Below, piece by piece: positions 11,648 through 53,053 of a DNA stretch of 64,000 nucleotides. The DNA comes from a virus. Position 1 is the first letter of the stretch, and the number at the start of each line of letters is the position of its first letter. The DNA is taken from IMG/VR virus record IMGVR_UViG_3300005264_000008, positions 18,229-82,228 of that record, one strand, 5' to 3'. Under the pieces are notes generated by a model. It was not told the origin of the DNA. It saw only the letters and a program-made list of their open reading frames with translations, and ran no database searches. Made by a program: the position numbers and the translations under genes.

Positions 11648-11845
11648 ATGAATGGAAGAAAGTTATATAGAGAATATACACAAAGTAAGGGCAAAGAAGC
11701 AAAAGAGTTTATCAAGATTGAAGAAGACTGGTATAATTTAGACATGTTAATAACAAAAGATAATAAGGGTCATGAAGAAAAAACAAGTATTAATTATAAG
11801 GATTTAGTTAATTGGATAATCCGAAATAGGCCTGATTACTCATAA
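11648..11845 (+). CDS. hypothetical protein (cassette cargo)
   Basis: Stop codon TAA lies inside the CATAAC inverse core. Confidence 0.6.
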   Translation: MNGRKLYREYTQSKGKEAKEFIKIEEDWYNLDMLITKDNKGHEEKTSINYKDLVNWIIRNRPDYS

Positions 11846-11911
11846 CAAAACGCTTGATGTATCTTTCATATAATAATTAAATTATAAGATGTTAAAAATG
11901 TATGTAATATT
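11844..11911. repeat. conserved cassette-array end element, copy 1
   Basis: AACAAAACGCTTGATGTATCTTTCATATAATAATTAAATTATAAGATGTTAAAAATGTATGTAATATTT; near-identical copy on the minus strand at ~52985-53053. Confidence 0.85.
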
Positions 11912-11934
11912 TAATTTTCATATTAGATTTATAT

Positions 11935-11966
11935 AAAAATCCATGTTTAATAAACATGGATTTTTT
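11935..11966. terminator. intrinsic terminator
   Basis: AAAAATCCATGTTT-aat-AAACATGGATTTTT. Confidence 0.7.
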
Positions 11967-12013
11967 AATTTATTTAATTTATATAATAATAACAAAAAAA
12001 TAATAACAAAGAA

Positions 12014-13714
12014 ATGAATACAAAAAAAATTGTATATGAAAGTGATGCATTATCACAAATGAAAAAAGGAATTGATAAGGTGTATGGAGCAGTTAGTTCA
12101 ACATTAGGACCGAATGGTCATAATGTACTAATTGAAACTGAAAATGGAAAAATAATTTCAACTAAAGATGGTGTAACAGTAGCAAAATCAATAAAGTTAG
12201 AAGATAGTGTTGAAAACATGGGTGCACAATTCATAATCAACAGTTCAATTCATACAAATAAAATTGCTGGTGATGGAACAACAACTGCAACTGTATTGAC
12301 ACATTCTATTATTACAGAAGGATTAAAACGACTTGACACTAATATCAATGTGTTTGATTTAAAACGTGGCTTAGAACAAACAAAAGACGTGATTATTGAT
12401 GAACTTGATAATATGAAGAAAGATATTGTTGATGAAAATGATTATGAAAATGTTGCAACTATATCTGCAAATGGTGATGATAAAATTGGAAGACTTATTT
12501 CAGAAGCATTTAAATCAGTTGGGACAGATGGTGTAATTACTGTTGAAAAAAGTAATACTGGATTAGATGAATTGGAAATTGTGGATGGATTGCAATTTAA
12601 TAGTGGGTATTTATCACCATTGTTTATTAATAATGAACAATCATTACAAGTTGAATTTGATAATCCTCGTTATATATTTTTCGATGGTAAATTACAAACA
12701 GTTACTCAAATATTAAAATTACTTGAATATTCAGCTACTCATAATATACCACTTGTCATTGTAGCAGATGATATTAGTAATGAAGCATTGTCAATATTGA
12801 TTGTTAATAAAGTTAGAGGTATTGCAAATGTATGTGCAGTTAAAGCACCTGGATATGGTGATTTACGAAAAGAAATGTTACAAGATATGGCAACATTGAC
12901 AAATGGTATTGTTGTAAGTGCTGACCGTGGCATGGAGATTGAAAATATTACTGATGATGTGTTTAATGATGATGGAGAACTAATTCAGACTATAAATAAT
13001 GTATTTGGGACTAGCCGTTCATTCACAAGTACTAACAAACAAAGTACTATAATTGATGGGAATGGTGAATTGGAGAAAATCGAGTTGAGAATAGACCAAT
13101 TACAATCACAAATAGAAAAATCAGTATCTGATTATGAAAAACAACGTTATAGAGAACGTTTAGGTAAAATGTCAGGTGGTGTAGCAATCATAAATGTAGG
13201 TGGTGAAAGTGATGTGGAAATTGAAGATAAAAAGTTTAGAATAGAAGATGCGTTAAATGCAACTAAATCAGCTATTGAAGACGGTGTGTTACCAGGTGGA
13301 GGAATTGCATTGATGAAAATCTGGGATAAACTTGAAAATGAAACAGAATATTCAAGTGATATTCTTGAAAATGTTATCTCACGAAATATTATGTTAAAAG
13401 CAATTAAACAACCATTTATGAAAATCATCGATAATGCTGGATTGAATGGTGATGTTATTTGGAGTGAACTACATACATCGAATGATTTATTAACAGCAAT
13501 TGAAAATAAAAATAATCCAATTGAATTAAACGATGGATTCAATGTTAAAACTAAAAAATATGTTAATATGATTACAGATGGTGTCATTGACCCAACCAAA
13601 GTTGTAAAAACAGCATTACAAAAAGCAACATCACTAGCATCAACATTTTTGATGACTAATGCAATAATTGTGGATATTCCTACTGAAACAAAACCCGAAG
13701 AAATGCAATATTAA
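12014..13714 (+). CDS. groEL: chaperonin GroEL
   Basis: TLGPNG, TKDGVTVAK, AGDGTTTATVL, KAPGYGD, GVLPGGG, GVIDPTKV. Confidence 0.96.
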   Translation: MNTKKIVYESDALSQMKKGIDKVYGAVSSTLGPNGHNVLIETENGKIISTKDGVTVAKSIKLEDSVENMGAQFIINSSIHTNKIAGDGTTTATVLTHSIITEGLKRLDTNINVFDLKRGLEQTKDVIIDELDNMKKDIVDENDYENVATISANGDDKIGRLISEAFKSVGTDGVITVEKSNTGLDELEIVDGLQFNSGYLSPLFINNEQSLQVEFDNPRYIFFDGKLQTVTQILKLLEYSATHNIPLVIVADDISNEALSILIVNKVRGIANVCAVKAPGYGDLRKEMLQDMATLTNGIVVSADRGMEIENITDDVFNDDGELIQTINNVFGTSRSFTSTNKQSTIIDGNGELEKIELRIDQLQSQIEKSVSDYEKQRYRERLGKMSGGVAIINVGGESDVEIEDKKFRIEDALNATKSAIEDGVLPGGGIALMKIWDKLENETEYSSDILENVISRNIMLKAIKQPFMKIIDNAGLNGDVIWSELHTSNDLLTAIENKNNPIELNDGFNVKTKKYVNMITDGVIDPTKVVKTALQKATSLASTFLMTNAIIVDIPTETKPEEMQY

Positions 13715-13731
13715 TAAAAATATAAAAAAAA

Positions 13732-13980
13732 ATGAATCAACAACAACAACAACAACAAATCGATTTAAGTCTTACTGGTGAAATTATATGTGAAAATTGC
13801 AGTAATACATTATTCAAACAAGTTTATTATCTAAGAACAGTACCCAAAACCATATCTAAAAGTGGTCGAGAAGAAGTATTTCCAATTGTAACATTTGCTT
13901 GTGAAGAATGTGGACACATCAATAAAAATTTTGAAGTTAATATTAAACCAAAAATTAAAGAAAACAAAATTATCAAATAA
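13732..13980 (+). CDS. small zinc-ribbon protein
   Basis: CENC ... CEECGH. Confidence 0.7.
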   Translation: MNQQQQQQQIDLSLTGEIICENCSNTLFKQVYYLRTVPKTISKSGREEVFPIVTFACEECGHINKNFEVNIKPKIKENKIIK

Positions 13981-13982
13981 TA

Positions 13983-14744
13983 ATGCGTAAACAAGTATCA
14001 TATTCACAATACATGCAATATGTCAATTGTAAAAAACAATATGAACTAACATACATAGAAGGGCTGTCGATTAGGCAACCCTCTATTTATACTTTAATTG
14101 GAACATCTATTCATGAAACTATTCAACAGTATTATGACGAACAATTTCCAATTAAATACAATTACAGTGATATATTATTTTCATATATTGAAAAAAACAT
14201 TAAAATTCAATCTGATAAATTTCAAGAAACATTTGTCAATTCAACAGAGTTGAATGATTTTTTCGTACAAAGTCAAGTGGTATTACAAAAATTCGTTAGC
14301 AACCGAACTGAACTTATTAGCCCCGAACTGCAATATATTAAATCAGAATACGAATTAAAATGTGATTTATCATTTCTTGGTGCAGATGCTCGGTTTAGGT
14401 ATATTAATATAATTGGATTCATCGACATGTTATTCAAAACAATTGATGGTAAATACATAATATTTGATATAAAATCTAGTAATAAAGGATGGACTATTAT
14501 TGATAAGAAAAACAAATATAAATTATTCCAACTAATATTATATAAAAAATTACTATCACTAATATCAAATATTGATGAAAATGATATTGAAATTAAATAT
14601 TTGTTTTTAGAATATGGGACTGGTGAAGTTAATGTATTCACACCAAATTTGTCCAAAATAAATGAAAACGAATTATTCAATGAATTCAGAGATTTCATAT
14701 TTGATGTGTTTGATGAAAACGGTATGTATATACAAAGATTTTAA
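13983..14744 (+). CDS. PD-(D/E)XK exonuclease (RecB/Cas4-like)
   Basis: SYSQ..Y..C, GTSIHE, E...GFID, DIKS, QL.LY; the C-terminal Cys cluster (C.FC.Y...C) seems to lie just past the stop in another frame. Confidence 0.8.
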   Translation: MRKQVSYSQYMQYVNCKKQYELTYIEGLSIRQPSIYTLIGTSIHETIQQYYDEQFPIKYNYSDILFSYIEKNIKIQSDKFQETFVNSTELNDFFVQSQVVLQKFVSNRTELISPELQYIKSEYELKCDLSFLGADARFRYINIIGFIDMLFKTIDGKYIIFDIKSSNKGWTIIDKKNKYKLFQLILYKKLLSLISNIDENDIEIKYLFLEYGTGEVNVFTPNLSKINENELFNEFRDFIFDVFDENGMYIQRF

Positions 14745-14822
14745 TAATACTGATAATAGTGACAATTGTTTTTTCTGCGAATATAAAGGGACACCATACT
14801 GTAATAAATTTAAATTGACTAT

Positions 14823-15257
14823 ATGATTAAAGTGTTAATAACTGGATATCGAGAAACAAATAACCCAATATATATAAAGGATTTCATATTTAATATAAAA
14901 CAATCATATAAAGATGATAATATCACGATATTTGGTAGAGGTGAATATAATAATGATAATTATAAATCAAATATAGATTTTCTTATTCGTAAATATTGTA
15001 GGGAATTTGATGTTTCATTTTGCGAATATACACCTTATTATAAACAGAGAAACCCATTTACAATTAATATTTATGATATATATACACAAACAGTTAAAAA
15101 ACGATTTATACGGTTAATACATATGTTTGAACATGTTAATTATATTGTATATTTCATTGATAAAACACTATATCCGACTGTGGACGATATCAAGGATACA
15201 TCATTTTTTAATGAATTGAAAAAACATAAAACGCAATTTAAAATTAAAATAATATAA
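14823..15257 (+). CDS. hypothetical protein, possibly SLOG/YspA-like
   Basis: N-terminal VLITGYR resembles the SLOG IxGSR motif. Confidence 0.4.
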   Translation: MIKVLITGYRETNNPIYIKDFIFNIKQSYKDDNITIFGRGEYNNDNYKSNIDFLIRKYCREFDVSFCEYTPYYKQRNPFTINIYDIYTQTVKKRFIRLIHMFEHVNYIVYFIDKTLYPTVDDIKDTSFFNELKKHKTQFKIKII

Positions 15258-15288
15258 TAGTTATAAAAAAAGTTGTAGTTTAAATTAG

Positions 15289-15442
15289 CTATAACGGATA
15301 ACTTCTTGATTTTCATTTACAAATACTAACAATTTAATAAATTAAAAAACATCATCCAAATTCAATTAAATATTGGTAAATGAGTCTTGTCTTCTTATTA
15401 AATAGCAGAAAAAAATAAATGACTTCAAACGCAATGTTAGCA
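15289..15442 (+). mobile_element. attC-like site
   Basis: CTATAAC ... GTTAGCA with inner TCATTTA/TAAATGA arms. Confidence 0.6.
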
Positions 15443-15476
15443 ACTTTATTTATTAATAACTTTAAAATTAAAAAAA

Positions 15477-15782
15477 ATGGATATTCAAATTTTTATCGAT
15501 GAACAAGTCGAAATGTTAAACAATGATTTTGGTACAGACCAAATTCAATGGAATATATACAGACTATTTTTCAAAGAATATATGCCAGACTTACCCCTTA
15601 ATACAATAATTTCGAGATGTATGGAAGTTTATGCACAAATTATTAAAATCCATTCGGCTCAACCTTTATTTAAAGCTCTTGAAAAAGTTCAATTGCAAGT
15701 TGGTCAAATCGAACATAACTGGGATTATCAACAGAAAGAATATATGCCGTTTGTTATAAAAGCACTTACAGCTAACTTTTAA
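15477..15782 (+). CDS. hypothetical protein (cassette cargo)
   Basis: Flanked by GTTAGCAAC (15436) and its exact reverse complement GTTGCTAAC (15785). Confidence 0.7.
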   Translation: MDIQIFIDEQVEMLNNDFGTDQIQWNIYRLFFKEYMPDLPLNTIISRCMEVYAQIIKIHSAQPLFKALEKVQLQVGQIEHNWDYQQKEYMPFVIKALTANF

Positions 15783-15786
15783 TTGT

Positions 15787-15918
15787 TGCTAACGGCTAAC
15801 TTAATTGAACTGTTGCGACTTAACGCACAACGTAAATTAAAAGTAGTAAGTCCAAAAATAACACAGATGTAAATTAACAGCATAATGTAAGCCTGTGAAA
15901 TTCAAGCAAATGTTATGT
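15787..15918 (+). mobile_element. attC-like site
   Basis: TGCTAAC ... GTTATGT with TTGAA/TTCAA inner arms. Confidence 0.7.
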
Positions 15919-15935
15919 GCTTAAATTTAAAAATT

Positions 15936-16493
15936 ATGATTAAAGTATTAAATTTATACGCAGGTATTGGAGGTAATCGAAAGTTTTGGAATAACTGTAA
16001 TATCACTGCAGTAGAAAATGATAACCAAATTGCAGATAAATATAAACAGCAATTTCCAAATGATAAAATAATTATTGATGACGCTCATCAATTTTTATTG
16101 GAAAATTATAAAGAGTTTGATTTTATTTGGTCAAGCCCCCCATGCCCAACTCATTCTCGAACTAATTATTTTCTAAATCCAAAAGGAATAATTCGATACC
16201 CGGATATGAAATTATGGCAAGAAATAATCTTTTTATCTGCATTTTTTAAAGGTTATTTCGTTGTTGAAAATGTAATAAGCTATTATAAACCTATTCTTAA
16301 TCCGCAACAAATAGGAAGACATTATTTTTGGTCAAACTTCAATATCCCAAAAATAAAACAACCAACAAATGACATTGGTAGAATGAATGGGAAAAATCAA
16401 CCAGCATGTAAAAAACATAAAACTGAAAGAAATGCTGTCAATTCTGAATTAGGTTTACACATTTTTAATCAATTTTTGGAAGTTAAAAAATAA
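15936..16493 (+). CDS. short C5-cytosine DNA methyltransferase (cassette cargo)
   Basis: LNLYAGIGG, WSSPPCP.HS, VVENV; flanked by GTTATGTGC and GCACATAAC. Confidence 0.85.
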   Translation: MIKVLNLYAGIGGNRKFWNNCNITAVENDNQIADKYKQQFPNDKIIIDDAHQFLLENYKEFDFIWSSPPCPTHSRTNYFLNPKGIIRYPDMKLWQEIIFLSAFFKGYFVVENVISYYKPILNPQQIGRHYFWSNFNIPKIKQPTNDIGRMNGKNQPACKKHKTERNAVNSELGLHIFNQFLEVKK

Positions 16494-16527
16494 AACAATC
16501 CAGCTATGCTGTCGCTATTTTAGTTGC

Positions 16528-16595
16528 ACATAACGAAAATGTATTTAAACTGAAAAATCTTTTTTGATTTTTTTGTTTTAAATACAATGTTAGGA
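16528..16595 (+). mobile_element. attC-like site
   Basis: ACATAAC-gaaaa-TGTATTTAAA ... TTTAAATACA-at-GTTAGGA. Confidence 0.8.
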
Positions 16596-16682
16596 GCTTT
16601 ATTTTTAGGCTTTTATCATTGTATCGGAAAATAAATAAAAGAAACTTGAAAAAAAAATTTTTTTATTCAAAATAAGTTTTGT

Positions 16683-16690
16683 ATCTTTGT
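16683..16690 (+). promoter_or_regulatory. Bacteroidota-type -7 promoter element
   Basis: TATCTTTG matches TAnnTTTG, upstream of ORF 16716/16731. Confidence 0.55.
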
Positions 16691-16715
16691 CATACTAAAA
16701 AGCAATAAAGCTGAG

Positions 16716-17312: not shown

Positions 17313-17316
17313 TATT

Positions 17317-17526
17317 ATGAAAAAATTAACAATAAAAGAATGTAATAATTTTATCACTTATATTCATAAAAATGAAGAAAGTGTAATCTTAAGCATTGAA
17401 GAAAAAGATAATGCAATCGTAATAGTAATTAGTTGTGTTGATTTTTCAAATTTAACAACACACGAAAAAGAATTAACTTTTACAGAAAAAGAGTTTAAAA
17501 ATATTATTAAACAAATAAAACAATGA
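17317..17526 (+). CDS. hypothetical protein
   Basis: 69-aa ORF. Confidence 0.5.
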   Translation: MKKLTIKECNNFITYIHKNEESVILSIEEKDNAIVIVISCVDFSNLTTHEKELTFTEKEFKNIIKQIKQ

Positions 17527-17830
17527 AAACATTAATCGTATTACCAGATACATTAGCAGTAGTAGCTAAAAAAACAAGGATTTACACCAAAAGGCTATTA
17601 TTCTCAATCAGAAAAAGGTGCAAACGAAAATAAATACATTCTTTTGTTTTATGAAGGCGATGAATATTTACAGGAAATCCCAGACTTTTGTTATCTTTTA
17701 TATTAGTATTATATATTGTTATATTAGTATCACATAAAAATTTAATATTTTTTAACAATTATTATATTAACTTTAATTTTTAAATTATGTTATTTATAGA
17801 ATGGTAAAAAATAATACTACAATCGTTAAT

Positions 17831-18170: not shown

Positions 18171-21100
18171 ATGAAAAAATATTCGCACTCCACTGTACAT
18201 GATGAAACAATGAAATATTTTGATAATGATGTATTAGCAACCGATGTATGGATGAAGAAATACGCATTGAAAGATTCCGATGATAATTATTACGAATTAA
18301 CACCTGATGACATGCATCATCGAATAGCAAGTGAACTTGCACGTGTTGAAAAAAAATATCCTAACCCTATGGGCGAAGATGAAATATTTGAATTATTAAA
18401 AGACTTTAAATATGTCATACCTGCTGGTTCTAATTTATTTGGTATTGGCAATGATAAATATTTAACAAGTCTTAGTAATTGCTTTTATATACATCATGAT
18501 AACAATGATAGTTATGGAGGGATAATGAAATTAGATGAAGAATTAGTTCACCTTTTCAAAAGAAGATGTGTCGAAGAAAATTCACATGTGATGACTTTAA
18601 ATAATGGATTATTAAGAATAAAAAATATTACTAAAGGTGATATGGTGTTATCTTATAATACTAAAACCCAAAAATCCGAATATAAAAAGGTAATTGATAA
18701 ATTTGATACTTTTGTTGATAAAGATGATAGAATAATAATAAAACTATCAAATGGAAGCCAATTAAAAACATCAAAAAAACATCCAGTTTTGACATTTTCT
18801 GAAATTGGAGAATATGTTTATAAAAATGCAGGAGATATACAAAAAGGTGATATTTGTATATCATCTTTGACTAAAAATAATTATAATGTTTATAATTTTG
18901 ATAAAAAATTATCTGATATTGCATGGTTCACAGGACATCATCTGGGAGATGGTACATGTGGTAAAAATAAGTTACGTTTTAGAATATTAGGGGATAATGA
19001 AAAATGTATTGCAGAGTATGCATCTATTTTGAATGACATAACAGGCTCAACTGCAAAATATGGGTTATCTAAAAAGAAAGGTTATTTAGTTGATGTATGG
19101 GACTATACTAATAATAAAAAATCTTTAAACGATGTATTAGTTAGATATTTGGATAACCAGCGTGGAAAAAAAACATATTCAATGTTTACTCCAAATTTTA
19201 TAAAAAATAATAATTTATGGATACCTTTCATAGCAGGTTTAATAGATGCAGATGGAACAGTAACAGCAGATGGTAGATTATCGTTAACACTAACATCAAA
19301 AACAATGATAGATGAAATAAATTCTTATCTGTTATATAATGGTATCAGTTGTCATGTGAGTGTTAAGATTGACAAACGCAATTCAAAATGGAAACCGCTT
19401 TATACATTACGATTTCATAAAGATGTTGAATTTTATTCTAATATATTAAAATATCTTATTCATGATAAAAAAAGACAACGTCTTATTGAAAATAAAATAA
19501 CGGTTCATTCGTATAAAAGATTTATAACTGAAGAAGAACATAATGAAATGTTGAATAATTATAGTTCTAAAGGATTTTATAAATATAATAGAAACAACAA
19601 AGCACCAAAAGAATTTAATATTAAACGGAAACAATTGCAAAGTGCTATTGATACTGTGAAAGGTAATAATGGATTAGGTATAAGTGCTTTAAATATACTG
19701 TTAAAACATGATATTATAAATAATGATAAGTATAATGAGATTAATCAACGTGTTTTTGTTACGAATGTAAGTATAGATAATGATAGTTCTAAATATATTG
19801 ATATTGAAGTCGATGGTAATCATAATTTTTATGCAGGTAATTTTGGCGGAATCGTAACTCATAATTGTGGAGTCGGAATTGATGTGTCATTTTTAAGACC
19901 CAAAAATTCTAAAGTTAATAATGCGGCCTTAACAACAACTGGTGCAGTGAGTTTTATGAATAGATTTAGTCATACAACTGAAGAAGTTTCTCTTTTAGGT
20001 CGTAGGGCCGCACTAATGATTACAATGGATGTTAGTCATCCTGAAATTGAAGATTTTATTTCAATAAAACAAGATTTAACAAAAGTAACAGGGGCAAATG
20101 TATCAATTAAAATAACAGATGATTTTATGTTAGCTGTTAAAGAAAATAATGAATTTGAATTGAAATTTCAAATGGCAGATAAGTCTTGGATAAGAAAAAA
20201 GGTAAACGCTAAACAGATATGGGACAAATTTATAAATGCAAGCTGGAATTCAGCCGAACCTGGATTGTTATATTGGGATAAAATAAAAAGAGAATCACCT
20301 TCCGATGGTTACGAAGGGTTTGATTTACAGGGGGTTAATCCATGTTCTGAATTAACGCTATCAGATTCAGAGAGTTGTAGATTAACATCTATTAATTTAA
20401 CTGCTTTTGTTAAAAATAGTTTCACTGAAAAAAGTATGTTTGATTTTGAACAATTCAAAAATGTAGCGATTAAAGCTCAGAGATTGATGGACGATATAAC
20501 TGATTTAGAAATAGAAAAAATAAATTCGATTTTACAAAAAATTGAACAAGACCCTGAGAATGCCGATGTGAAATTTAGAGAAATTTCCTTATGGAAAAAA
20601 ATATTAGATAAAGCAACTGATGGTAGACGTTCAGGATTAGGTATAACTGGATTGGCTGACATGTTAGCAATGCTCGGATATACATATGGAACACACGAAG
20701 CAACTTCATTTTCAGAAAAAATATTTATAGATTTAGCAAAATCGTCATATGAATCTTCAATAAACATGGCTAAAGAAAGAGGAGCTTTTAAAAATTGGTC
20801 AATTGATAAAGATAAAAAAAGTGATTTTATAAATAGATTATTATATGAAACCATAGACTCAGACGTTTTTGAATTATATAAAAAATATGGTCGTAGAAAT
20901 ATCGCAAATTTAACAATTGCACCAAATGGGTCATTGAGTTTATTGAGTAAAACATCATCAGGTGTTGAACCTGTTTTCATGGTTAAACATAAAAGACGAA
21001 GAAGAGCAACAGAAACAGATTCAGTTGATTTCATTGATGATGTTGGTAATAAATGGAAAGAATATCTTGTATTTCATCCTAAGTTCGAAGAATGGTTTAA

Positions 21101-27063: not shown

Positions 27064-27082
27064 TTTTGTTTATTTTTAATAG

Positions 27083-27145
27083 TTATAGTGCAAATATAAT
27101 CTATATAATTTAATATAAAAATAATAATTGTTAAAAAATGTTAAA
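27083..27145 (-). promoter_or_regulatory. early/host-sigma promoter, repeated at 56452-56515
   Basis: Minus strand TTTAACA x2 ... TATATTTGCACTATA (TAnnTTTG). Confidence 0.7.
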
Positions 27146-27198
27146 ATGTCACACAAAAACATCAAAGACACACACTATGTGTTTTATTATGGTTAATT

Positions 27199-32776: not shown

Positions 32777-33649
32777 ATGGATAATAATTACTTAGTAGAA
32801 AGAAATGGTCACATCATACATTTGAATGATGAAGTGATTATCGAAAATAAAAATAAACGTTTTCTAGCAACATTCATACAAATGGATGATTCTGATAATG
32901 CAATATTAAAAATGAATGAAAGCGGAAAGCATATTAAAATAAACAGAGTACAAGCACAACAATATTTAAAACTAAATGAATCAAATCAAACTAAAAATGA
33001 TTTGACATTAGTTGATAGTAAAATGTTCTTCGGTGAAATAGCTAATGATATTATTAGTGAAGAAACATCATCATTAAAACCGATTGTTGATATAGATGAC
33101 ATATCAAAATATGGTATTAATATAACAGAAAATTTTAATAATTCTGGAAGACGTATTGCGGATATTAAAAAATTAGAATCTATATTGTATAATGCTAAAA
33201 TAATAGCAGAGAAATATAATTTGGACTTACATAGATTAATTACAGAAGGTAAAGATGTATTAGGTGTAGTCGGGTATGGTATCGAAACATCTTCGGAGTA
33301 TGAAATTGAAGAATATGCGAATGAAGATGGAATTGAAACCGATAGTGAATTTTGGTCAAAAATTAATAATGATATAAGTATAATTGAAAGAAATGTTCTT
33401 AAATATCTAAATAAAACTGATTCTGCACGTGATGAAGGTCACAATTCAAATGATGAATTAGTTGGAACATTATATATATCAAATAATAAGACATTAGAAA
33501 TGGTTGAAGATTCTATTGATGATGAACCACGAATGACATCAAAAGGTGATTTTCCACTGGATGATAGTGAGCTATACAAAGGTGTATCAGATGTTGGTGG
33601 CTTGATTGAAGTTTCACTTAACTTTTATAATTTAGAATTAGAAAAATAA
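32777..33649 (+). CDS. acidic putative internal head protein
   Basis: Many LNE/ISE/ITE sites; acidic C-terminal half. Confidence 0.55.
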   Translation: MDNNYLVERNGHIIHLNDEVIIENKNKRFLATFIQMDDSDNAILKMNESGKHIKINRVQAQQYLKLNESNQTKNDLTLVDSKMFFGEIANDIISEETSSLKPIVDIDDISKYGINITENFNNSGRRIADIKKLESILYNAKIIAEKYNLDLHRLITEGKDVLGVVGYGIETSSEYEIEEYANEDGIETDSEFWSKINNDISIIERNVLKYLNKTDSARDEGHNSNDELVGTLYISNNKTLEMVEDSIDDEPRMTSKGDFPLDDSELYKGVSDVGGLIEVSLNFYNLELEK

Positions 33650-33668
33650 TAAAATAAAATAAAATAAA

Positions 33669-33980
33669 ATGAAAATAACAAAGAAACAATTAACAGAAAT
33701 CATAACTGAGTCAGTACAAAAATATTTGAATGAAAATAAATATAAATCAAACAGTAAAGAATCAAATATTGTAGATATGTTTTATGATACATGGGCAAAA
33801 AATAAACAATTTCCACAACTAAAACAAAAATCAATTGACCCAATTGAAGTGGATTCTACAAATGGAATTATTAAATTGAAATTTACTATTGATGAGATTT
33901 TTAATAACAAAGGTAAAATAGAAAAAATAAAGCCAGAAAAGTACAATATTGATTTGAAATTTGAAATTACGAAAATATAA
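33669..33980 (+). CDS. leader-family protein
   Basis: MKITKKQLTEIITESVQKYLNE. Confidence 0.7.
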   Translation: MKITKKQLTEIITESVQKYLNENKYKSNSKESNIVDMFYDTWAKNKQFPQLKQKSIDPIEVDSTNGIIKLKFTIDEIFNNKGKIEKIKPEKYNIDLKFEITKI

Positions 33981-33988
33981 ATAATAAA

Positions 33989-34324
33989 ATGAAAATAACA
34001 AAGAAACAATTAACAGAAATCATAACTGAGTCAGTACAAAAGTATTTGAATGAAGTTATGGGTTATAATATGAAAGCAAGTGATAAAAAATTCATATCAA
34101 GTTGGATTAATGGTAATCTAAAAGAAGGAGATAATAACCAGCGTTTATCAATAGAAAAAGGTAATATACTATCTGGTGTAATGTCTAATTTGGCAAGGAT
34201 TAAAGATATGGTACTATATTATGGTTATGCATATGGTAATGTATCACAAACATATATTAATTATATTAAAAAAACAGCAAAACAAAACGGACTTACGTTA
34301 AAATACTCTGAAAAAATTTATTAA
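33989..34324 (+). CDS. leader-family protein
   Basis: Same 22-aa leader as 33669, unrelated C-terminus. Confidence 0.7.
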   Translation: MKITKKQLTEIITESVQKYLNEVMGYNMKASDKKFISSWINGNLKEGDNNQRLSIEKGNILSGVMSNLARIKDMVLYYGYAYGNVSQTYINYIKKTAKQNGLTLKYSEKIY

Positions 34325-35586: not shown

Positions 35587-36483
35587 ATGAAATTAACAAA
35601 GAAAACTTTAACAACTTTAATTTTAAAAGAAATTAAAAAGCAAACTAAAAAAAGTTTAGTAGTAACTGAATCAATTCGTGATAAAGTATTAATTGAAAAT
35701 ACAATTAGTAAAATTAAAAATAGTAAATTAACATATTTAAAAAAGAAAAAATATATTAATGCTATTACTGAGAACATTGGCAATGCAAAGAAAGTAAGTA
35801 AATATTTAACAGAAGGCATTGATAAAAAGTTGTTAACATTACAAAAATATCTTACAAAAGAATATGGTAAACAATATGAAGATGTGATTGAACATGAATA
35901 TGATAATACTTATTCATATAATGATGAAGAATATATTGTATTAACCGATAAAGAAGCTGATGAACTTGCAGTTGAGTACATGAAAGATTTATTAGATGAT
36001 ATTGGAATTGAAGGTACAAATCTAAATCAAGAAGACTATATCAATAATACAGACTGGTTTGATACTGCTATGCAAGAATCATATGAAAGTTATGTAAAAG
36101 AAATTGAAAATGAAAGTGATAATACATACGATAATAGATTAATTGCAGAATTAGTTGAAACTGGTTTGTTAGATGATGATGATTTTGAAACTGATGAAGA
36201 TGGTGATATTGATTATTATAATTTAAACGATGATGTTAATTTAGATGATAAAAGGGAAAAATATATTGAAGTGTTAATGGATAATTATTCAGATAGTGTC
36301 GAATGGTTTAAAAGTAATTTTGGTGATGACGAATTTAATGATATATTAAAAGATAAAGATTTAATAGATATTGATAGAGTTGTTGACGATATAATCCGCA
36401 TTGACGGTAGAGGTAGTGTAATATCATCATATGATGGAGCAGAAAACAAATTAAATAACTTTTATATATATCGAACGAGTTAA
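35587..36483 (+). CDS. leader-family protein with highly acidic C-terminal domain
   Basis: MKLTKKTLTTLILKEIKKQ; D/E-rich after YLTE. Confidence 0.65.
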   Translation: MKLTKKTLTTLILKEIKKQTKKSLVVTESIRDKVLIENTISKIKNSKLTYLKKKKYINAITENIGNAKKVSKYLTEGIDKKLLTLQKYLTKEYGKQYEDVIEHEYDNTYSYNDEEYIVLTDKEADELAVEYMKDLLDDIGIEGTNLNQEDYINNTDWFDTAMQESYESYVKEIENESDNTYDNRLIAELVETGLLDDDDFETDEDGDIDYYNLNDDVNLDDKREKYIEVLMDNYSDSVEWFKSNFGDDEFNDILKDKDLIDIDRVVDDIIRIDGRGSVISSYDGAENKLNNFYIYRTS

Positions 36484-36504
36484 CAAACAAATAAACTAAA
36501 TAAC

Positions 36505-36750
36505 ATGAAATTAACAAAAAAAGAATTAACAAAAATCATTTCAGAAGTAATAGACAATCATATCAATGAAGATTATGGATGGGATATTAAACGTGGTAAA
36601 GAACAGGATGCACTTGAAGATGCAATTGAAATGTTTGGTGAAAAATCAATATTACAACAATTAGTACAAGCAATGGGTACAAGTGCATTATCTGATAATC
36701 TTTCTTATATTTTTAGAATGAATGATTATGAATCACCATATTTAAAATAA
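36505..36750 (+). CDS. leader-family protein
   Basis: MKLTKKELTKIISEVIDNHINE. Confidence 0.7.
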   Translation: MKLTKKELTKIISEVIDNHINEDYGWDIKRGKEQDALEDAIEMFGEKSILQQLVQAMGTSALSDNLSYIFRMNDYESPYLK

Positions 36751-47955: not shown

Positions 47956-48062
47956 TATTATTTATTTATAAATATGTCATATTAAAAAAAAAATTCGTTT
48001 ATTTATAAAAACACATAAATTAAATGGGAAGTTAATTTTCAGAACATTAAAAAGATACAATT

Positions 48063-48302
48063 ATGGAATTTCTAAAATATTTACTCGAATCACATAAGTT
48101 TTTTTGTAGACAATCACAGCATTATGTAATGGGAAATTGGGCAGAATCTGAAAAAAAATATTTTTGGTATAATACCAAAGAAAAACAAAAAAGATATATT
48201 TTTTATAAAACTTTTTTCATAGTTGCATATATTAGATTCATGAGAATGTCAATTATCGATGCAATGCGTATAATTAACACAACCAAAAATATGTCAGATT
48301 GA
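48063..48302 (+). CDS. hypothetical protein
   Basis: 79-aa ORF in a cassette-rich region. Confidence 0.45.
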   Translation: MEFLKYLLESHKFFCRQSQHYVMGNWAESEKKYFWYNTKEKQKRYIFYKTFFIVAYIRFMRMSIIDAMRIINTTKNMSD

Positions 48303-48519
48303 GAATTATGTATTAATTCATCTAAACTTTCACATTTAAAAGAAGATTATAATTTCAATTCAGACAAGAAATACGTTGTGATTATCGATTGCACATGACA
48401 TGTATATATTGGAATTGGATTTGTGTGGCATGAAAAATATAATTATCAATACAATATTATACACTCTTTTATTTTTAGTGTCGTAAATTATTTTATATTA
48501 ACCTTAAATTCATCGAATT

Positions 48520-49014
48520 ATGACAAACAAAGAACAAAATACGATTGATGATTTATATGCATTAGTTTTAAAATTAAGAAATGAGAATAATGATTTTAAA
48601 ACTAAAATGAATCAAAGAATAGAAAAAACTGAAACGATTGTCAATAAAAAACATATTCCGTTATCATTGGAAGAAAGTATTATGAATACGGCTAAAAACT
48701 CAATGGCAGATGCTATAAAATCTACTTTCACAGGGTATTCAAATCCGCTTATAGAATATGCAAAAGAAATTACCGAAAAGCATCACCATAGTATAAAAGC
48801 AACGTTTGAAAAAATTGTTTCAGAAGGTATTGTTTCTGTTGATTTTGAAAATGCGTGTAAAGAACAGTTTTTAAGAAAAATTGCAAAAACGGTAATTTCT
48901 GGAATTGATGGGTCGGTGGATAAAGTTGTTAATCAAATGAAACAAGACAGTGTTTTCCGTTCAAAATTAACTCTTATGGTTAATAATTTAATAGAAGAGT
49001 ATTTGTCGATGTAG
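48520..49014 (+). CDS. hypothetical protein (cassette cargo)
   Basis: Followed by GTACAAC-GAATACGTGTTTG, the same attC start as at 11521. Confidence 0.65.
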   Translation: MTNKEQNTIDDLYALVLKLRNENNDFKTKMNQRIEKTETIVNKKHIPLSLEESIMNTAKNSMADAIKSTFTGYSNPLIEYAKEITEKHHHSIKATFEKIVSEGIVSVDFENACKEQFLRKIAKTVISGIDGSVDKVVNQMKQDSVFRSKLTLMVNNLIEEYLSM

Positions 49015-49180
49015 CATTGTACAACGAATACGTGTTTGAATACATTTTTTTAACCGATATCAGTTGATAATTAGTAAAAAAGTCAATTAAAATTATTATA
49101 AACCATCTGTGAATTGTTACGCATGGTATGTATGGGAAAAAAGATATACTGGCGACACTATTGTTCGCTGGTTTAATTAA

Positions 49181-49266
49181 CCATAACGTTGAGTAGTGGC
49201 GACTAAACGCAAAGATAGATAATGGTACTAACGATGCCGAGCCATTATTTATATACAGTGTTAGGC
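49181..49266 (+). mobile_element. attC-like site
   Basis: CCATAAC...AGTAGTGGC/GCCATTATT...GTTAGGC. Confidence 0.65.
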
Positions 49267-49285
49267 ATCTTTAAATTTTTACAGA

Positions 49286-49495
49286 ATGGAAGCACTAAAT
49301 GAGTTAAACAAAGAAACAAGCACAGAAGTCTGGAATAAAGCACCTTTAATTATACACCAAAGATTCTGTTACGAACTTGTTTCTATTGCGAAAAAGCATG
49401 AGAAACAGAAAATGGACGAAGTGCATGAGTTTATGGATATGTTGAAAGCTATTGAAATACTTGAGAAATTGTACCCTGAACTTAGTAAAAAATAA
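49286..49495 (+). CDS. hypothetical protein (cassette cargo)
   Basis: Flanked by GTTAGGCA (49260) and TGCCTAAC (49499). Confidence 0.65.
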   Translation: MEALNELNKETSTEVWNKAPLIIHQRFCYELVSIAKKHEKQKMDEVHEFMDMLKAIEILEKLYPELSKK

Positions 49496-49499
49496 TTGT

Positions 49500-49567
49500 G
49501 CCTAACAAAAATGTATTAAATTATGTTTTCGTTTTCCACAAAAATTAATATTAATACAATGTTATGA
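49500..49567 (+). mobile_element. attC-like site
   Basis: GCCTAAC-aaaaa-TGTATTAA ... TTAATACA-at-GTTATGA. Confidence 0.8.
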
Positions 49568-49612
49568 ATTTCCATTTCATTGCATTAATTGTAAATCTTA
49601 AAATATATTATT

Positions 49613-49822
49613 ATGAAACTACATGAAAAAAAACACTATATCGAAAAAGGTATAATATTTACACACCTTTGGGTCGATGGATTTGGATGGGAAAATACAA
49701 TCTATGGAGTCGAAGATTTTATTAAATGTAATTGTATTGGCACTAATGGTAACGACAAAATATATCATTGTGTAAATGATAGAAATATACCAGTAATAAT
49801 AAAAGGCTATTTTGTAGATTAA
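49613..49822 (+). CDS. hypothetical protein (cassette cargo)
   Basis: Stop codon inside TTAAC, followed by a partial end element. Confidence 0.6.
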   Translation: MKLHEKKHYIEKGIIFTHLWVDGFGWENTIYGVEDFIKCNCIGTNGNDKIYHCVNDRNIPVIIKGYFVD

Positions 49823-49899
49823 CATTTTATAAGATGTTGAAAATGTATGTAATATTTAATTTATTTAATTTATATAATAATAACAAAAAATAATAAAAA

Positions 49900-50223
49900 A
49901 TGGAATACAAACCAATCGACAACAAAGTTGTATTAAAACAACTAAAAAAACAAAAAAAGGCATCAGGAATAATTGTACCAGACTTAGGTCAAAATAAAAC
50001 AATTGAAGTAGAAGTTCTATCAATCGGACCAGGTTTGCCGATGTTTAATAATACATCTGAGCTACTGACTTCAAATAAAGTACAAAAACGATATCCAATG
50101 CAAATAAAAGTAGGTGATATTGTTGTAATACCTAAATATGGATTACATGAGTATGATGAAAATGGTAAAAAGTATTTTATCGGTAAAGAAAGTGATATAT
50201 TATTTATAAAAACAGAAGTATAA
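49900..50223 (+). CDS. groES: co-chaperonin GroES
   Basis: KPIDNKVV, ASGIIVPD, VLSIGPG, KVGD.V...KY, ESDIL. Confidence 0.9.
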   Translation: MEYKPIDNKVVLKQLKKQKKASGIIVPDLGQNKTIEVEVLSIGPGLPMFNNTSELLTSNKVQKRYPMQIKVGDIVVIPKYGLHEYDENGKKYFIGKESDILFIKTEV

Positions 50224-50615
50224 ATAATTTATTGTCTATAACGGAGCGATAACTAAAATGTTAATGTCTTGATTGTTTTAAATAATATGTTATACACTTT
50301 ATTTTCAATCATATAGTAATAACAAATAAATTAAATTAACACGCTCATTTTAACGGATATGCAGAGTTGCACATAAAACGAATATGTATATGAGTCTGTT
50401 TTAATGGCTTATATACATTATTGTAAGTAATTAGATTAACAAAACATCATGGAAATATTATTGATTTATCGGTTACTTCTGGGATGTTTTGGTATTTTCA
50501 TCAAAATTGATTACAATAAATATTAGGTGTATTTTTTTTCATTCTCACAATCAAGTACTTAGTATTTTTTTTTCATTTTATTGTAAATTTATTTGTTTAT
50601 GTGAATTATATATTT

Positions 50616-50631
50616 TATATTTGCACTATAA
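50616..50631 (+). promoter_or_regulatory. Bacteroidota-type promoter element
   Basis: TATATTTGCACTATAA, same core as the 27083 and 56452 copies. Confidence 0.65.
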
Positions 50632-50648
50632 CTAATAAAAAAAATATC

Positions 50649-51248
50649 ATGAAAAAAATAAGCTATAATGATGGACAAGGAAGTAGAGACCGTAAAGTAA
50701 TGCTAGTATTATTTATACCAAGTATAAATAAATTAGTAAAATTTAATTCAGAAGATATAGATGGTTTATGTATAATCACGAATGAAGATTATACTAAAAA
50801 TGGGAAATGGTCTAATTCAACATACGAATTGGCAATTCCCAATGAGGTTCTTCATTGTGAAATCCGACAAGACTGGGAAAATGGGTATTATATCCCCGAA
50901 GGCAATTGGGAAGATGCTTTTAATAATTTTGTCTTAAAGACAGAATTTAAAACACTGTCATTTGAAGAATTTGTTTCATTTGTCACAGTACAATATCCAA
51001 TTACATCTGAACGTTTGAATGAAACGCAAAAAAAGCTATCAAGATTAGATAATTCGGATTATTCGTTTTTAACAATTCAAAACGAATATGATAATGTAGT
51101 AAATGAACTGAAAAATGCTATTCAAGATGCAGAAATTAAACTTGAAATGGAGCGTCTTCAAGTAAAAACAGAAAAATTGAAAACTAAACTAAAAGAAAAA
51201 GGAAAAATGAGCTTAGAAGAACTAAGTGAATTATATAAAAAATTATAA
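50649..51248 (+). CDS. hypothetical protein
   Basis: ATG downstream of the promoter motif; C-terminal coiled coil. Confidence 0.6.
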   Translation: MKKISYNDGQGSRDRKVMLVLFIPSINKLVKFNSEDIDGLCIITNEDYTKNGKWSNSTYELAIPNEVLHCEIRQDWENGYYIPEGNWEDAFNNFVLKTEFKTLSFEEFVSFVTVQYPITSERLNETQKKLSRLDNSDYSFLTIQNEYDNVVNELKNAIQDAEIKLEMERLQVKTEKLKTKLKEKGKMSLEELSELYKKL

Positions 51249-51258
51249 ATAATAATAT

Positions 51259-51290
51259 TAAAAAAGACATCAAATTGGTGTCTTTTTTTT
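51259..51290. terminator. bidirectional terminator
   Basis: AAAAAGACATCAA..TTGGTGTCTTTTT. Confidence 0.65.
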
Positions 51291-52920
51291 ATTCACTAGT
51301 ACCCCTGAAATGTTTTTTTGTACTAGATGGGCTATAATTATCAATTACATCAAACCCTAAACTTATATTAACAACCATTGGAATTTCCTTTATAATATCC
51401 CACGGATACTCATCATCAATTGTATATGATAGTGATGTCATTATAACTGGTAGACCTTCACTTACATTATTTGCAAACCACATACCAATTTTTAATGATA
51501 TAATCTGACCTGACATTTGACCTGAATCACTTATCTTTGGACTTTGAAGTTGTACTAGTTTATCTAATTTAGTATACACTGTTTCTATTTCATGGACACT
51601 AAATAATGGCACTAATAAATTAAATGATAATGCTCGTTTTGTTCCTTCATACGTATAAACATCATCAGGCCGACCAATGTACTTAGTAGGTGACCAAGAT
51701 GGGCTAAATGTATCAGAAAGTCCACTTATAAATGCTCTAAACTGAATACCTGCTATTTTGAGATGTATTAAATCATTACTATTATTACTTCCCATGTTTA
51801 TTTCATCTGTTCCACTTACATGTGTCCCTTCATTTGGGTATGAATTATCTGCAGTTCCTAAACGTTTTGACATATTCCAATTCTGATAATAACTATTATT
51901 ATCATTGAAATTAAATTTGTCTTTATATCCAGTAATATCTTTAAAATAATCTTTTGTTTTACTGTTTAATTCAGTATCAAAATTATTATATTTTTTTGAA
52001 TATGGGCTGTTATCAGTTTGAAATTCTTTGTATGATTGATATGTATTGTAATTATCTAATAAGTCAATTGACATTCCATTATAACCAGTTGCAAATCCTG
52101 GTTGTAATCTTTTTCCATATAGTTCATTTTGTAATTTTGTCAATCCACTTGAATTATTTGTTTTATCAATTGTATTATTATATGGATTATTTGGATTGTA
52201 ACTACTATTTAATGTAATTGGTATTCCACTTACAGATTTTCGTATAACAGTACTACCGATTCCATAAAATGAATTAGGACCACCCACACCTGTTAATTCG
52301 GTGTTAATAGTTTCTTCGAATCGTTCATTTATATTTTTCAATGTTTTTATTAACTTACTATTTTGCATATCATCTGTTAATAAACTAAGAATCCTTTCAA
52401 ATGATGATGATTGTAGTGTGTTTTCGTCATTTGTTAAACCAAAATTATTTAACATTTTAATAAGTCGGTTTCCTGTCTTATATGTCTCAGTTGTATTTAG
52501 TTTGTTATAGAATTTTTCATATTCTACTTCATGGTGCATTGACCCATAATTATCGATATGAAATCCTCCTTGTGGTATATTCATTGAAAATTTAATTGGG
52601 TTGAATATGTTAATTGGGTCTATTCCATCATAACCTCGTTTTGGGTTCATTAAATGTAACCCTTCTTGTTTTAATATCCATAGATTACCTTTTGGGCTGG
52701 ATAAAAAATCAGTAATTCGTTTCGTGTCATCTAATGCATGCTTCATATAATCTCTACCACCATATATAAAATCAATATTATTATAATGTGAATAATTACT
52801 AGAATCAATCTCAGTTGGAATGTTTTGTTTTAATATATTATTAGTAATTATATTAGGGCTTTGTGTATTTTTATCTGATACTGTGAAAAATGCTTCTAAA
52901 TTTGTATTGATATTTAACAT
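51289..52920 (-). CDS. baseplate/tail-tube initiator-like structural protein
   Basis: C-terminal QFRAFI.GLSD.F...W....YIGR...Y.Y....R..SF tube-like domain. Confidence 0.6.
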   Translation of the reverse strand: MLNINTNLEAFFTVSDKNTQSPNIITNNILKQNIPTEIDSSNYSHYNNIDFIYGGRDYMKHALDDTKRITDFLSSPKGNLWILKQEGLHLMNPKRGYDGIDPINIFNPIKFSMNIPQGGFHIDNYGSMHHEVEYEKFYNKLNTTETYKTGNRLIKMLNNFGLTNDENTLQSSSFERILSLLTDDMQNSKLIKTLKNINERFEETINTELTGVGGPNSFYGIGSTVIRKSVSGIPITLNSSYNPNNPYNNTIDKTNNSSGLTKLQNELYGKRLQPGFATGYNGMSIDLLDNYNTYQSYKEFQTDNSPYSKKYNNFDTELNSKTKDYFKDITGYKDKFNFNDNNSYYQNWNMSKRLGTADNSYPNEGTHVSGTDEINMGSNNSNDLIHLKIAGIQFRAFISGLSDTFSPSWSPTKYIGRPDDVYTYEGTKRALSFNLLVPLFSVHEIETVYTKLDKLVQLQSPKISDSGQMSGQIISLKIGMWFANNVSEGLPVIMTSLSYTIDDEYPWDIIKEIPMVVNISLGFDVIDNYSPSSTKKHFRGTSE

Positions 52921-52984
52921 ATACTATTGTTTTAAATAAATAGTTTATAATAACAATAAGACAACAAATTAATACTTCCATTAT

Positions 52985-53053
52985 AAATATTACATACATT
53001 TTTAACATCTTATAATTTAATTATTATATAAAAGATACACCAAGCGTTTTGTT
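52985..53053 (-). repeat. conserved cassette-array end element, copy 2
   Basis: Reverse complement of 11844-11911 with about 2 substitutions. Confidence 0.85.

Follow-up and report, generated by a model that had tools for sequence, protein, structure and literature searches.

Genes, cassette rows and repeat copies

The analyzed window is a stretch of 64,000 nt (positions 18,229 to 82,228 of IMG/VR record IMGVR_UViG_3300005264_000008) and is a T4-like phage fragment with 25% GC; the host of the phage is probably a member of the Bacteroidota. The whole contig comprises 82,228 nt and is only 39% complete. A groEL-like gene at 12014-13714 (+) encodes a 566-aa chaperonin (Pfam Cpn60_TCP1, E 3e-64), and a groES-like gene at 49900-50223 (+) encodes a 107-aa co-chaperonin (Pfam Cpn10, E 4.3e-14). 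The two genes are 38 kb apart here and adjacent, as groES-groEL, in a related contig. A third gene, at 51289-52920 (-), encodes a 543-aa protein without Pfam, PHROG or PDB sequence match. Its AlphaFold model has a pLDDT of 75-89 in the C-terminal domain (about residues 376-543) and of 49 overall, and in VIA-align comparisons it resembles 9ki1 (Z 10.3), 9ay5_G (Z 10.2) and 8kea_P (Z 9.1). As modeled, the C-terminal domain has the tail-tube fold known from tube-initiator and hub proteins of baseplates, and the gene is accordingly termed baseplate tube-initiator-like. A 235,805-nt contig encodes proteins identical to TerL and to the 543-aa protein.

Rows of small co-oriented ORFs, one of which matches DNA methyltransferases of other phages, are split by imperfect hairpins of the form TAAC...GTTA, which we call attC-like. 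One such site, at 11519-11583 (+), ends in ACATCA-AAAACGCT-GTTA and lies one cassette, or 270 nt, upstream of the first repeat copy described below; its DNA fold has a z of -2.98, equaled by only 1 of 200 shuffled sequences. Another, at 53707-53837 (-), stands upstream of a 192-aa ORF and folds into a 24-bp stem with inverted arms at 53714-53737 and 53803-53826 (95.8%). A shortened site is present at 11171-11205, and cassette remnants at 50224-50648 include a AGTTGCACATAA tail that resembles the one at 16522. The best-formed row occupies 15258-16600. The 5' arm is the longer one in the hairpin at 16522-16600, and the hairpin at 11509-11600 is ambiguous; this arm-length asymmetry weakly favors the classical polarity.

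Two of the rows run into a 67-base element, the full copies of which lie at 11847-11913 (+, copy A) and 53050-52984 (-, copy C) and are identical at 65 of 67 bases. The element is divided here into part x (35 nt; 11847-11881 in copy A and 53050-53016 in copy C), in which a direct count gives 33/35 identities, and part y (32 nt; 11882-11913 and 53015-52984), with 32/32. A third copy at 49827-49858 (+, copy B) consists of the last 32 bases only, i.e., part y, with 31/32 identities, so that part y is the sole part common to all three copies. Self-BLAST aligns 11843-11913 with 53054-52984 (71 nt, 97.2%, E 1e-28), and a repeat search returns the inverted pair 11835-11913/52984-53062 (79 nt, 94%). 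The 31-nt core of the element has 3 matches at ≤3 mismatches and 0 in 100 shuffles. The two full copies on opposite strands and the truncated one near 49827, which had been proposed from a sequence-only reading of the window, are thus borne out. That reading had also called for a search beyond the window; the whole 82,228-nt contig contains these three copies only, and no homologue or look-alike outside this genome was found in the viral, metagenome and genome collections scanned.

The three copies have groEL, groES and the baseplate gene with the tail-tube fold as neighbors, and a recombinase gene lies beside none of them. In the 82-kb contig, PF00589 (tyrosine recombinase) gave 0 matches at E≤1, with a control that matched 14/14 genomes, and PF01797 (Y1 transposase) was not found; nor did three sets of related or look-alike phage records (5 + 1 + 13) contain PF00589.

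Cassette junctions and internal structure of the element

In both full copies, the similarity begins at the TAAC that marks the close of the final small ORF in a co-oriented row. The last ORF of the row at 10508-11845 (+, row A) encodes 65 aa and occupies 11648-11846 together with the C that follows its stop TAA; the TAAC core thus formed, 11843-11846, abuts the element. The last ORF of the row at 55006-53075 (-, row C) encodes 192 aa (53653-53075), and the unit with its tail extends over 53653-53051 (-) and ends in the TAAC core 53054-53051. TAAC has a per-position frequency of 0.0052 on each strand. The 65-aa and 192-aa ORFs have no Pfam or PHROG match and are unrelated to each other (BLASTP E 22), so that both the junction at the core and the unrelated cargo agree with what had been claimed. 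The junction TAACs resemble genuine cassette ends in that each unit begins and finishes with complementary sequence: the unit of the 192-aa ORF starts with GTTAAAGTT and ends with AACCTTAAC (8/9), the 65-aa unit starts with GTTATAG (from 11580) and is partly complementary to its end, CTCATAAC, and two units of the 15.3-16.6 kb row are complementary at 9/9 positions. Variable joins are seen elsewhere as well: one left module, ATTAACCWTRAC, has three different right modules after its AAC|, and one right module, GAATACGTGTTTG, follows three different left modules.

Cassettes upstream, with genes directed toward the element and joined to it at the AAC core, are found at two of the three copies. 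The expectation that each copy ends at GTT beside a different cassette thus holds for copies A and C and fails for copy B, the boundary of which is different. Part y of copy B is preceded by ATT and by a TAAC at 49820-49823 (the stop and following C of a 69-aa ORF); complementarity at the ends of this ORF is limited to GTTA/TAAC. Copy B is also not at the end of a row, since it is followed by groES and then by the cassette remnants at 50224-50648. The left boundary of the full copies is sharp, at the core, and the right boundary is arbitrary, as expected if cassettes were added later on one side of a duplicated site.

The element opens with 18 nt that read TAAC-AAAACGCT-TGATGT, and these motifs are shared with the adjacent attC-like hairpin. 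Part x begins with the 8-mer AAAACGCT, which occurs 4 times on both strands of the 82 kb, 3 of them in these sites, followed by TGATGT and one ATGTAT; part y contains GATGTTA, which is R'-like, and the second ATGTAT (P about 0.002 for the pair). A Smith-Waterman comparison of the element with the rest of the contig gave a best score of 38, within the range of the best scores of 30 shuffles (32-49), and therefore the resemblance rests on short words. A mini-ORF starting MLKMYVIF begins in part y of all three copies and is very short. As the sequence-only reading had stated, the element is not palindromic: the DNA fold of the full copies is no better than that of shuffled sequences (z +0.86 and +0.32; 160/200 and 116/200 shuffles as good), and yet TAAC and a GTTA stand 43 nt apart in it. 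A hairpin (z -2.98 and -3.14) comes after TAAC within the rows, whereas the TAAC of the last cassette leads into this non-folding sequence.

These features could also be left by decay. Part x would then be the left arm of a degenerated hairpin site and part y adjacent spacer DNA, recently copied by the recombination that shuffles hyperplastic regions and having no present function. Part x is laid out as R''-spacer-L'', like a left arm, and lacks a right arm, and remnants such as those at 11171-11205 and 50224-50648 abound around the copies. The copies are 97-100% identical within wholly unrelated flanks, as after recent copying, and no recombinase was found in the contig or in the related or look-alike records. 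Such a relic, however, requires a breakpoint at the exact AAC| in both full copies, next to different cassettes and after loss of the hairpin partner, which therefore points to a site-specific event at the duplex; moreover, part y is kept in all three partial copies. We regard neutral decay as possible, though on the unlikely side.

Downstream genes and transcription signals

Each of the three copies points toward a gene that starts 41-101 nt downstream of it. In copy A, part y is followed by an insert at 11914-11963 (+), present in this copy only and flanked by the 8-nt direct repeat TTTAATTT, and then by part z (11964-12024, +), a block shared with the groES region up to the ATG plus 10 nt. 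In copy B, part z (49859-49899, +) follows part y directly. Self-BLAST of part z aligns 11964-12010 with 49855-49900 at 95.7%, and ATTTATATAA is found in both, at 11977-11986 and 49868-49877. Matches to the late-type promoter-like motif TATTTATATAAAA number 15 at ≤1 mismatch, and 12 of these precede an ORF in the same orientation. The groEL gene, the groES gene and the 543-aa gene each have their own such motif downstream of the element or part y; it is located in the insert (11926-11938) at copy A and at 52930-52942 (-), 10 nt before the ATG, for the 543-aa gene. Most of a terminator-like hairpin (11935-11965) is also contributed by the insert and stands between copy A and groEL. Because of this hairpin and of the late motifs downstream, the element is better assigned to the row side than to the downstream gene.

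A promoter within the element, suggested earlier, finds no support. The Bacteroidota-type -7 motif TAnnTTTG is absent from both strands of 11820-12013, 49800-49899 and 52921-53080, i.e., around every copy; a host-type motif, TATATTTGCAC, does occur in other places, and 4 of its 10 matches precede genes. Sigma-70-like matches occur in total at shuffle level (36 vs 32.9; 63 vs 66.7), and the one on the opposite strand would read the cassettes antisense.

These data bear on a second alternative, in which part y, together with x or z, acts as a promoter, an operator or a 5' leader and was copied in front of groEL, groES and the baseplate gene for their joint expression, and in which the TAAC junction is incidental. 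The position and orientation of the three copies suit such a leader, two of the three genes form a chaperonin pair that is adjacent in a related contig, and copies A and B have part z in common as well. Exchange at short regulatory modules is also described, in the sections of the source cited here, for the PeSL systems of T4-type phages (PMC4122927). On the other hand, part z alone explains the link between groEL and groES, the element does not recur, even in part, at any other gene, and the terminator-like hairpin, the separate late-type motifs, the missing TAnnTTTG and the shuffle-level number of sigma-70-like matches all speak against it. A shared regulatory leader is therefore improbable.

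A candidate docking site and its relation to known systems

Our preferred reading, to which we give a probability of roughly 0.4, is that the element is a duplex site without its enzyme, an orphan at which cassettes dock or rows end, or a recent relic of such a site, in a hairpin-cassette system that lacks an integrase and in which the genes point toward the site. Two rows of hairpin-bounded cassettes end downstream in this non-hairpin sequence of ordinary duplex, and the last cassette is joined to it at the exact AAC core where hairpin sites otherwise begin. A tyrosine-type recombinase, not encoded in the available 82 kb, would pair the folded hairpin of a cassette with the duplex, in which the TAAC, the 8-nt spacer and the TGATGT/ATGTAT motifs of the hairpin sites recur. 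Strand exchange at AA|C would stack cassettes upstream, pointing toward the element. Copy B, with part y only, is on this reading a partial duplicate that moved along with the promoter-leader block common to groES and groEL. The copies and their junctions, the shared motifs, and the missing fold and promoter motifs are observed; the recombination, its polarity and the enzyme are inferred.

The sequence-only reading had taken the element for a fixed recombination partner toward which cassettes point. The orientation is as claimed, since the ORFs of rows A and C read toward their copies. As to the partner, a non-hairpin sequence does stand at the AAC core beside two different last cassettes, but a recombinase gene lies beside no copy, there is no inverted L/R core, and the row at 15258-16600 ends without the element.

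A more specific form of the docking-site reading is doubtful. In this form, the site is working or was recently orphaned and serves a reversed-polarity, integron-like gene capture in a T4-like phage. Cassettes would be added upstream at AA|C, where an early transcription unit ends and shortly before a late gene; the recombinase would come from the 60% of the genome that is missing, from the host or from another phage, and duplication of the site would seed new rows. Several observations count against a docking site: neither PF00589 nor PF01797 in the 39%-complete contig, chaperonin and baseplate genes beside the copies, and a clearest row that ends without it. Copy B lacks part x and has a different left boundary, three copies that are 97-100% alike are also what recent neutral duplication would leave, the collections searched hold no homologue by which conservation might be gauged, and the y + z block common to groEL and groES fits regulatory duplication equally well.

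If the docking-site reading is correct, the element is the missing partner site of phage cassette rows, and these rows are built in the orientation opposite to that of bacterial integrons. With it one could also ask, on a concrete substrate, which recombinase is responsible for shuffling the accessory genes of phages, the methyltransferase gene of the rows among them. Even as a relic or a leader, the element marks points of module exchange in the hyperplastic regions of the phage.

An integron consists of an integrase, an attI site and cassettes bounded by attC sites; attI1 contains DR1 and DR2 in addition to the L and R boxes. Like attI, the element is duplex and non-palindromic, holds several short motifs resembling those of the hairpin sites, and has a fixed sequence on one side of the GTT/AAC crossover core and variable cassettes on the other. 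On the strand complementary to the cassette ORFs, two of the three copies run from conserved sequence to G|TT and then into a variable cassette. Unlike attI, it occurs in three dispersed copies beside late genes with no adjacent integrase gene, and it stands at the downstream end of the rows with the genes toward it, whereas attI lies at the promoter-proximal 5' end with the ORFs directed away. On the element side, no AAC-containing inverted partner was found within about 12 nt of GTT, and inverted repeats worth noting are absent from the element as a whole. A classical attI on which an IntI integrase from the phage or its host would act is therefore highly improbable and was rejected: no intI gene lies beside any copy or in the contig, no inverted L box is near GTT, the element sits at the wrong end of the rows, and the sole promoter-like match would read the cassettes antisense, even though virulent phages carry attC clusters without an integrase, of which 5 of 6 tested sites recombined with attI1 through IntI1 in the experiments cited from PMC9892861.

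The PeSL of T4-type phages, as presented in the cited part of PMC4122927, combines an early promoter with a stem-loop, is present in many copies and acts via homologous recombination. The element is like it in being a short conserved intergenic module in T4-like hyperplastic regions that marks where otherwise unrelated sequences meet. It differs in having no stem-loop (no fold above shuffles) and no host-type promoter motif (no TAnnTTTG on either strand), in its copy number of only three, and in its sharp boundary at a 4-nt core.

To our knowledge, CALINs, which by definition have no attI, have been published from phages without either an enzyme or an attI. The rows described here resemble the phage CALINs in the sections cited from PMC9892861 in their co-oriented small ORFs, their attC-like TAAC...GTTA imperfect hairpins, the lytic type of the phage and an integrase that was not found; unlike those CALINs, two of the rows end in a repeated duplex end-piece.

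The repeated element and its phage

The 67-base element occurs in two full copies, A (11847-11913, plus strand) and C (53050-52984, minus strand), and in one partial copy, B (49827-49858, plus strand). A sequence-only reading had reported this repeat and proposed it as an attI-like partner; our analysis confirms the observation and supports the interpretation in part. The repeat search returned an inverted pair, 11835-11913 and 52984-53062, of 79 nt at 94% identity, self-BLAST aligned 11843-11913 with 53054-52984 (71 nt, 97.2%, E = 1e-28), and a 31-nt core matched three times in the window and in none of 100 shuffles. The entire 82,228-nt contig contains three copies only.

The element is composed of part x (11847-11881), which only the two full copies have (A/C, 33/35 positions identical), and part y (11882-11913), which all three copies have (A/C, 32/32; A/B, 31/32). 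A further block, z (11964-12024), is common to copies A and B only and ends at the start codon plus 10 nt. In copy A only, a 50-nt insert (11914-11963) lies between y and z; the insert, found upstream of groEL only, has the 8-nt direct repeat TTTAATTT on either side and contains a late-type motif and a terminator-like hairpin, and thus resembles a small promoter/terminator module that was inserted here. The homology between copies A and C has a sharp left edge at the core and an arbitrary right edge, which is the pattern expected if a duplicated site later took different cassettes on one side.

The 82-kb IMG/VR viral contig, most of which is the window, has a CheckV completeness of 39% and a GC content of ~25%. 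Its large terminase is of the T4 type and shares 48% identity with that of Flavobacterium phage immuto. The window also encodes a tail sheath, ribonucleotide reductase, clamp loader, topoisomerase II, DnaB-like helicase, primase, and an SbcC-like protein, together with eight tRNAs; the Rfam search matched seven tRNAs and no other family. The nearest relatives are distant (groEL, 41%; 543-aa protein downstream of copy C, 55%; TerL, about 54% identity), although TerL and the 543-aa protein also have identical counterparts on a recorded 235,805-nt contig. A motif family containing TATATTTGCAC lies ~25 nt 5' of four genes. It matches the -7 part, TAnnTTTG, of the Bacteroidota promoter consensus (TTTG/TAnnTTTG), which, together with the terminase match to immuto, suggests a Bacteroidota host. 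A family of five ~75-nt repeats (27070-27146, 50568-50645, 56438-56516, and others in the contig upstream of the window) holds TATATTTGCAC ~25 nt before the starts of the DNA polymerase, tRNA nucleotidyltransferase, and other genes, and these repeats are probably early promoters of the host (Bacteroidota) type. Many unrelated ORFs, including those at 33644-34054, 36480-36570, 61152-61242, and 61916-62006, open with a shared ~22-codon leader (MKLTKKQLTEII...) of up to 98% DNA identity.

blastn of 11700-12100 against 50,697 GenBank phage records gave no match, and both exact-pattern scans for y in IMG/VR returned 0 matches. The pattern scan of IMG/VR for x gave six, none extending past the 18-mer, at loci with a GC content of 33-50%. 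The metagenome contig scan returned one match, inside an ORF, and the GTDB scan returned two, one in the MAG of an insect symbiont and one in that of an archaeon, as judged from the listing alone. The class-I hairpin pattern matched four times in IMG/VR, three of which were the same sequence and none of which was in a hairpin context. BLAST of 11835-12013 against five related contigs produced weak A+T-rich matches only (best E = 9.6e-4, 76% over 45 nt), and the region upstream of the 55%-identical homologue of the 543-aa protein shows, by eye, no similarity. On these searches, the element appears to have no homologue in IMG/VR, the metagenome contigs, the GTDB genomes, or the GenBank phages.

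Cassette rows upstream of the element

The rows upstream of the copies consist of small co-oriented ORFs with imperfect hairpins (...TAAC to GTTA...) between them, and in rows A (10508-11845, plus strand) and C (55006-53075, minus strand) the orientation of the ORFs bears out the proposal that the cassettes point toward the element, opposite to classical integrons. The hairpins at 11509-11600 (fold z = -2.98; 1 of 200 shuffles as good) and 16522-16600 (fold z = -3.14; 0 of 200) are real, and that at 49499-49590 is weaker (fold z = -1.28). An automatic scan for AAC...GTT hairpins, run over the contig, proved too permissive for use, with 1,740 candidates.

The ORF units bear the hallmark of integron cassettes, namely complementarity of the bases that follow the starting GTTA to those before the closing TAAC. 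It is 9/9 in two units of the 15258-16600 row (the 101-aa and the methyltransferase unit), 8/9 in the 192-aa unit that adjoins copy C, and partial in the 65-aa unit that adjoins copy A; none was found in the 69-aa unit that adjoins copy B. Copies A and C begin directly after the TAAC that closes the last unit, the core at which the sequence-only reading had the similarity start, and the two last ORFs, on comparison, are unrelated. The expectation that every copy would end at the core beside a different cassette fails for copy B, in which TAAC lies 3 nt upstream and consists of a stop codon plus C, probably a coincidence. Double TAAC is not enriched (27 found versus 26.4 expected). Elsewhere in the window, AAC likewise behaves as a junction of modules, with three different right-hand sequences after ATTAACCWTRAC and three different left-hand sequences before GAATACGTGTTTG.

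In row A, the ORF at 10835-11074 apparently continues in another frame to 11169 and may be a frameshifted cassette gene. The 425-nt noncoding stretch after groES (50224-50648) is full of cassette-site remnants, i.e., a TAAC-GGAGCGATAAC...GTTA stub, a TAAC-AAAACATC...GATGTTTT hairpin, and a AGTTGCACATAA tail that resembles the one with which the methyltransferase cassette ends at 16522. Flavobacterium phage stinky9-1 (MN812238.1) has, at 947-7736, a run of ~18 small genes in one orientation together with three DNA methyltransferases, separated by 60-150 nt; one of these methyltransferases shares 43% identity with that of the cassette (15915-16493), and PF00589 has no match in this phage.

Motifs in common with the hairpins

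The first 18 nt of the element are TAAC-AAAACGCT-TGATGT, and the hairpin one cassette upstream of copy A ends in ACATCA-AAAACGCT-GTTA. AAAACGCT occurs four times in the 82 kb on both strands, and three of the four are in these sites. The fourth (63570-63589, minus strand) has the form AAAACGCTTG, like that in the element, and is located in a repeat region beside the tRNA cluster, close to 137-nt repeats at 63609-63745 and 63864-64000. ATGTAT is found twice in the element (P of about 0.002) and also comes after TAAC in two further hairpins, at 16531 and 49503. With these common motifs, which link it to the cassette system, the element offers in unfolded duplex form what the hairpins present when folded, and this is how an attI-type partner differs from attC. 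Smith-Waterman comparison of the element with the rest of the contig gave nothing above shuffles, so that the motif resemblances rest on short words. By eye, y resembles the left arm of AAAATGTAT-type hairpins; this resemblance was rejected because it falls below the Smith-Waterman null. The element itself was rejected as an attC, in agreement with the original description of it as nonpalindromic, since it does not fold despite having TAAC and GTTA 43 nt apart. An IS200/IS605-type insertion 3' of a tetranucleotide was also rejected, there being neither a Y1 transposase in the 82-kb contig nor a subterminal hairpin.

We consider the most likely reading, at a probability of about 0.4, to be that the element is an orphan duplex docking or end site, or a recent relic of one, of the hairpin-cassette system of this phage, which would be built in reverse orientation to integrons. 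Several observations count against docking: the best-formed row (15258-16600) has no element at its end, copy B lacks x, PF00589 had no match in 19 other phage records (0/5, 0/1, and 0/13, the last being 13 of 80 loci picked by length), and the scanned collections hold no element homologue. The asymmetry of the hairpin arms also hints at classical polarity, although this asymmetry is clear in only one of two scorable hairpins; in integrons, the extrahelical-base rule indicates the recombinogenic strand. A somewhat less probable explanation is that the element is a functionless relic of half a hairpin that was copied by recombination; there are three copies only, which are nearly identical and may therefore have arisen by recent neutral copying.

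Downstream genes and known systems

Copy A is followed by groEL (12014-13714; Pfam Cpn60, E = 3e-64), copy B by groES (49900-50223; Cpn10, E = 4.3e-14), and copy C by the gene for the 543-aa protein, which had no match in Pfam, PHROG, and PDB sequence searches. An AlphaFold model of this protein from 23 homologues is confident in the C-terminal domain only (pLDDT of 75-89, versus 49 overall), and this domain is predicted to have a tail-tube fold. The best fold matches are baseplate tube-initiator/hub chains of phage Mu (9ki1, Z-score = 10.3), P1 (9ay5_G, Z-score = 10.2), and cyanophage A-1(L) (8kea_P, Z-score = 9.1). A third chaperonin was rejected on the basis of this fold search and the lack of groEL similarity (E = 0.6).

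That the element serves as a regulatory leader of these genes is unlikely. The link between groEL and groES is striking: the two genes are 38 kb apart here and adjacent in a related contig (L006, 2700-3060), and they have ~60 nt of upstream sequence in common, which reaches as far as the ATG plus 10 nt and is offset by 1 nt in frame. This link, however, is carried by the promoter-proximal z, and y may simply have come along with z. A late-type motif, TATTTATATAAAA (compare the T4 late promoter), has 15 matches at ≤1 mismatch, and in 12 of these a co-oriented ORF begins no more than 120 nt downstream, among such ORFs the sheath gene and neighbours of the terminase gene. After the element, all three downstream genes have this motif or its 10-nt core, at 10 nt (543-aa gene), 28 nt (groEL), and 23 nt (groES) from the ATG. 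In copy A, a terminator-like hairpin (11935-11965) of the AAAAATCC...GGATTTTT form, as in the other terminator-like hairpins of this phage, stands between y and groEL. TAnnTTTG is absent from both strands of the upstream regions of the three genes, and sigma-70-like matches are no commoner than in shuffled sequence (36 versus 32.9; 63 versus 66.7), one of them being on the opposite strand inside y. The evidence is thus mostly against the suggestion that the element carries a promoter.

A classical attI is very improbable, since no recombinase gene lies beside any copy, PF00589 and PF01797 have no match in the 82-kb contig (39% complete), the cassettes point toward the element, and the core has no flanking inverted L/R pair. 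What stands of the attI-like partner is a duplex with hairpin motifs and an AAC junction with two cassettes.

A limited search of the literature brought up CALINs in phages and PeSLs but no description of a repeated duplex site that ends phage cassette rows. In T4-type phages, PeSL modules are the known short intergenic sites of exchange (PMC4122927); both of their defining parts, as described there, are absent from the element. Qi et al. (2023; PMC9892861) reported that virulent phages carry attC clusters that lack an integrase and have methyltransferases as cargo (CALINs), and five of six tested attC sites recombined with attI1 via IntI1. The rows around the element are of the same kind as these clusters.
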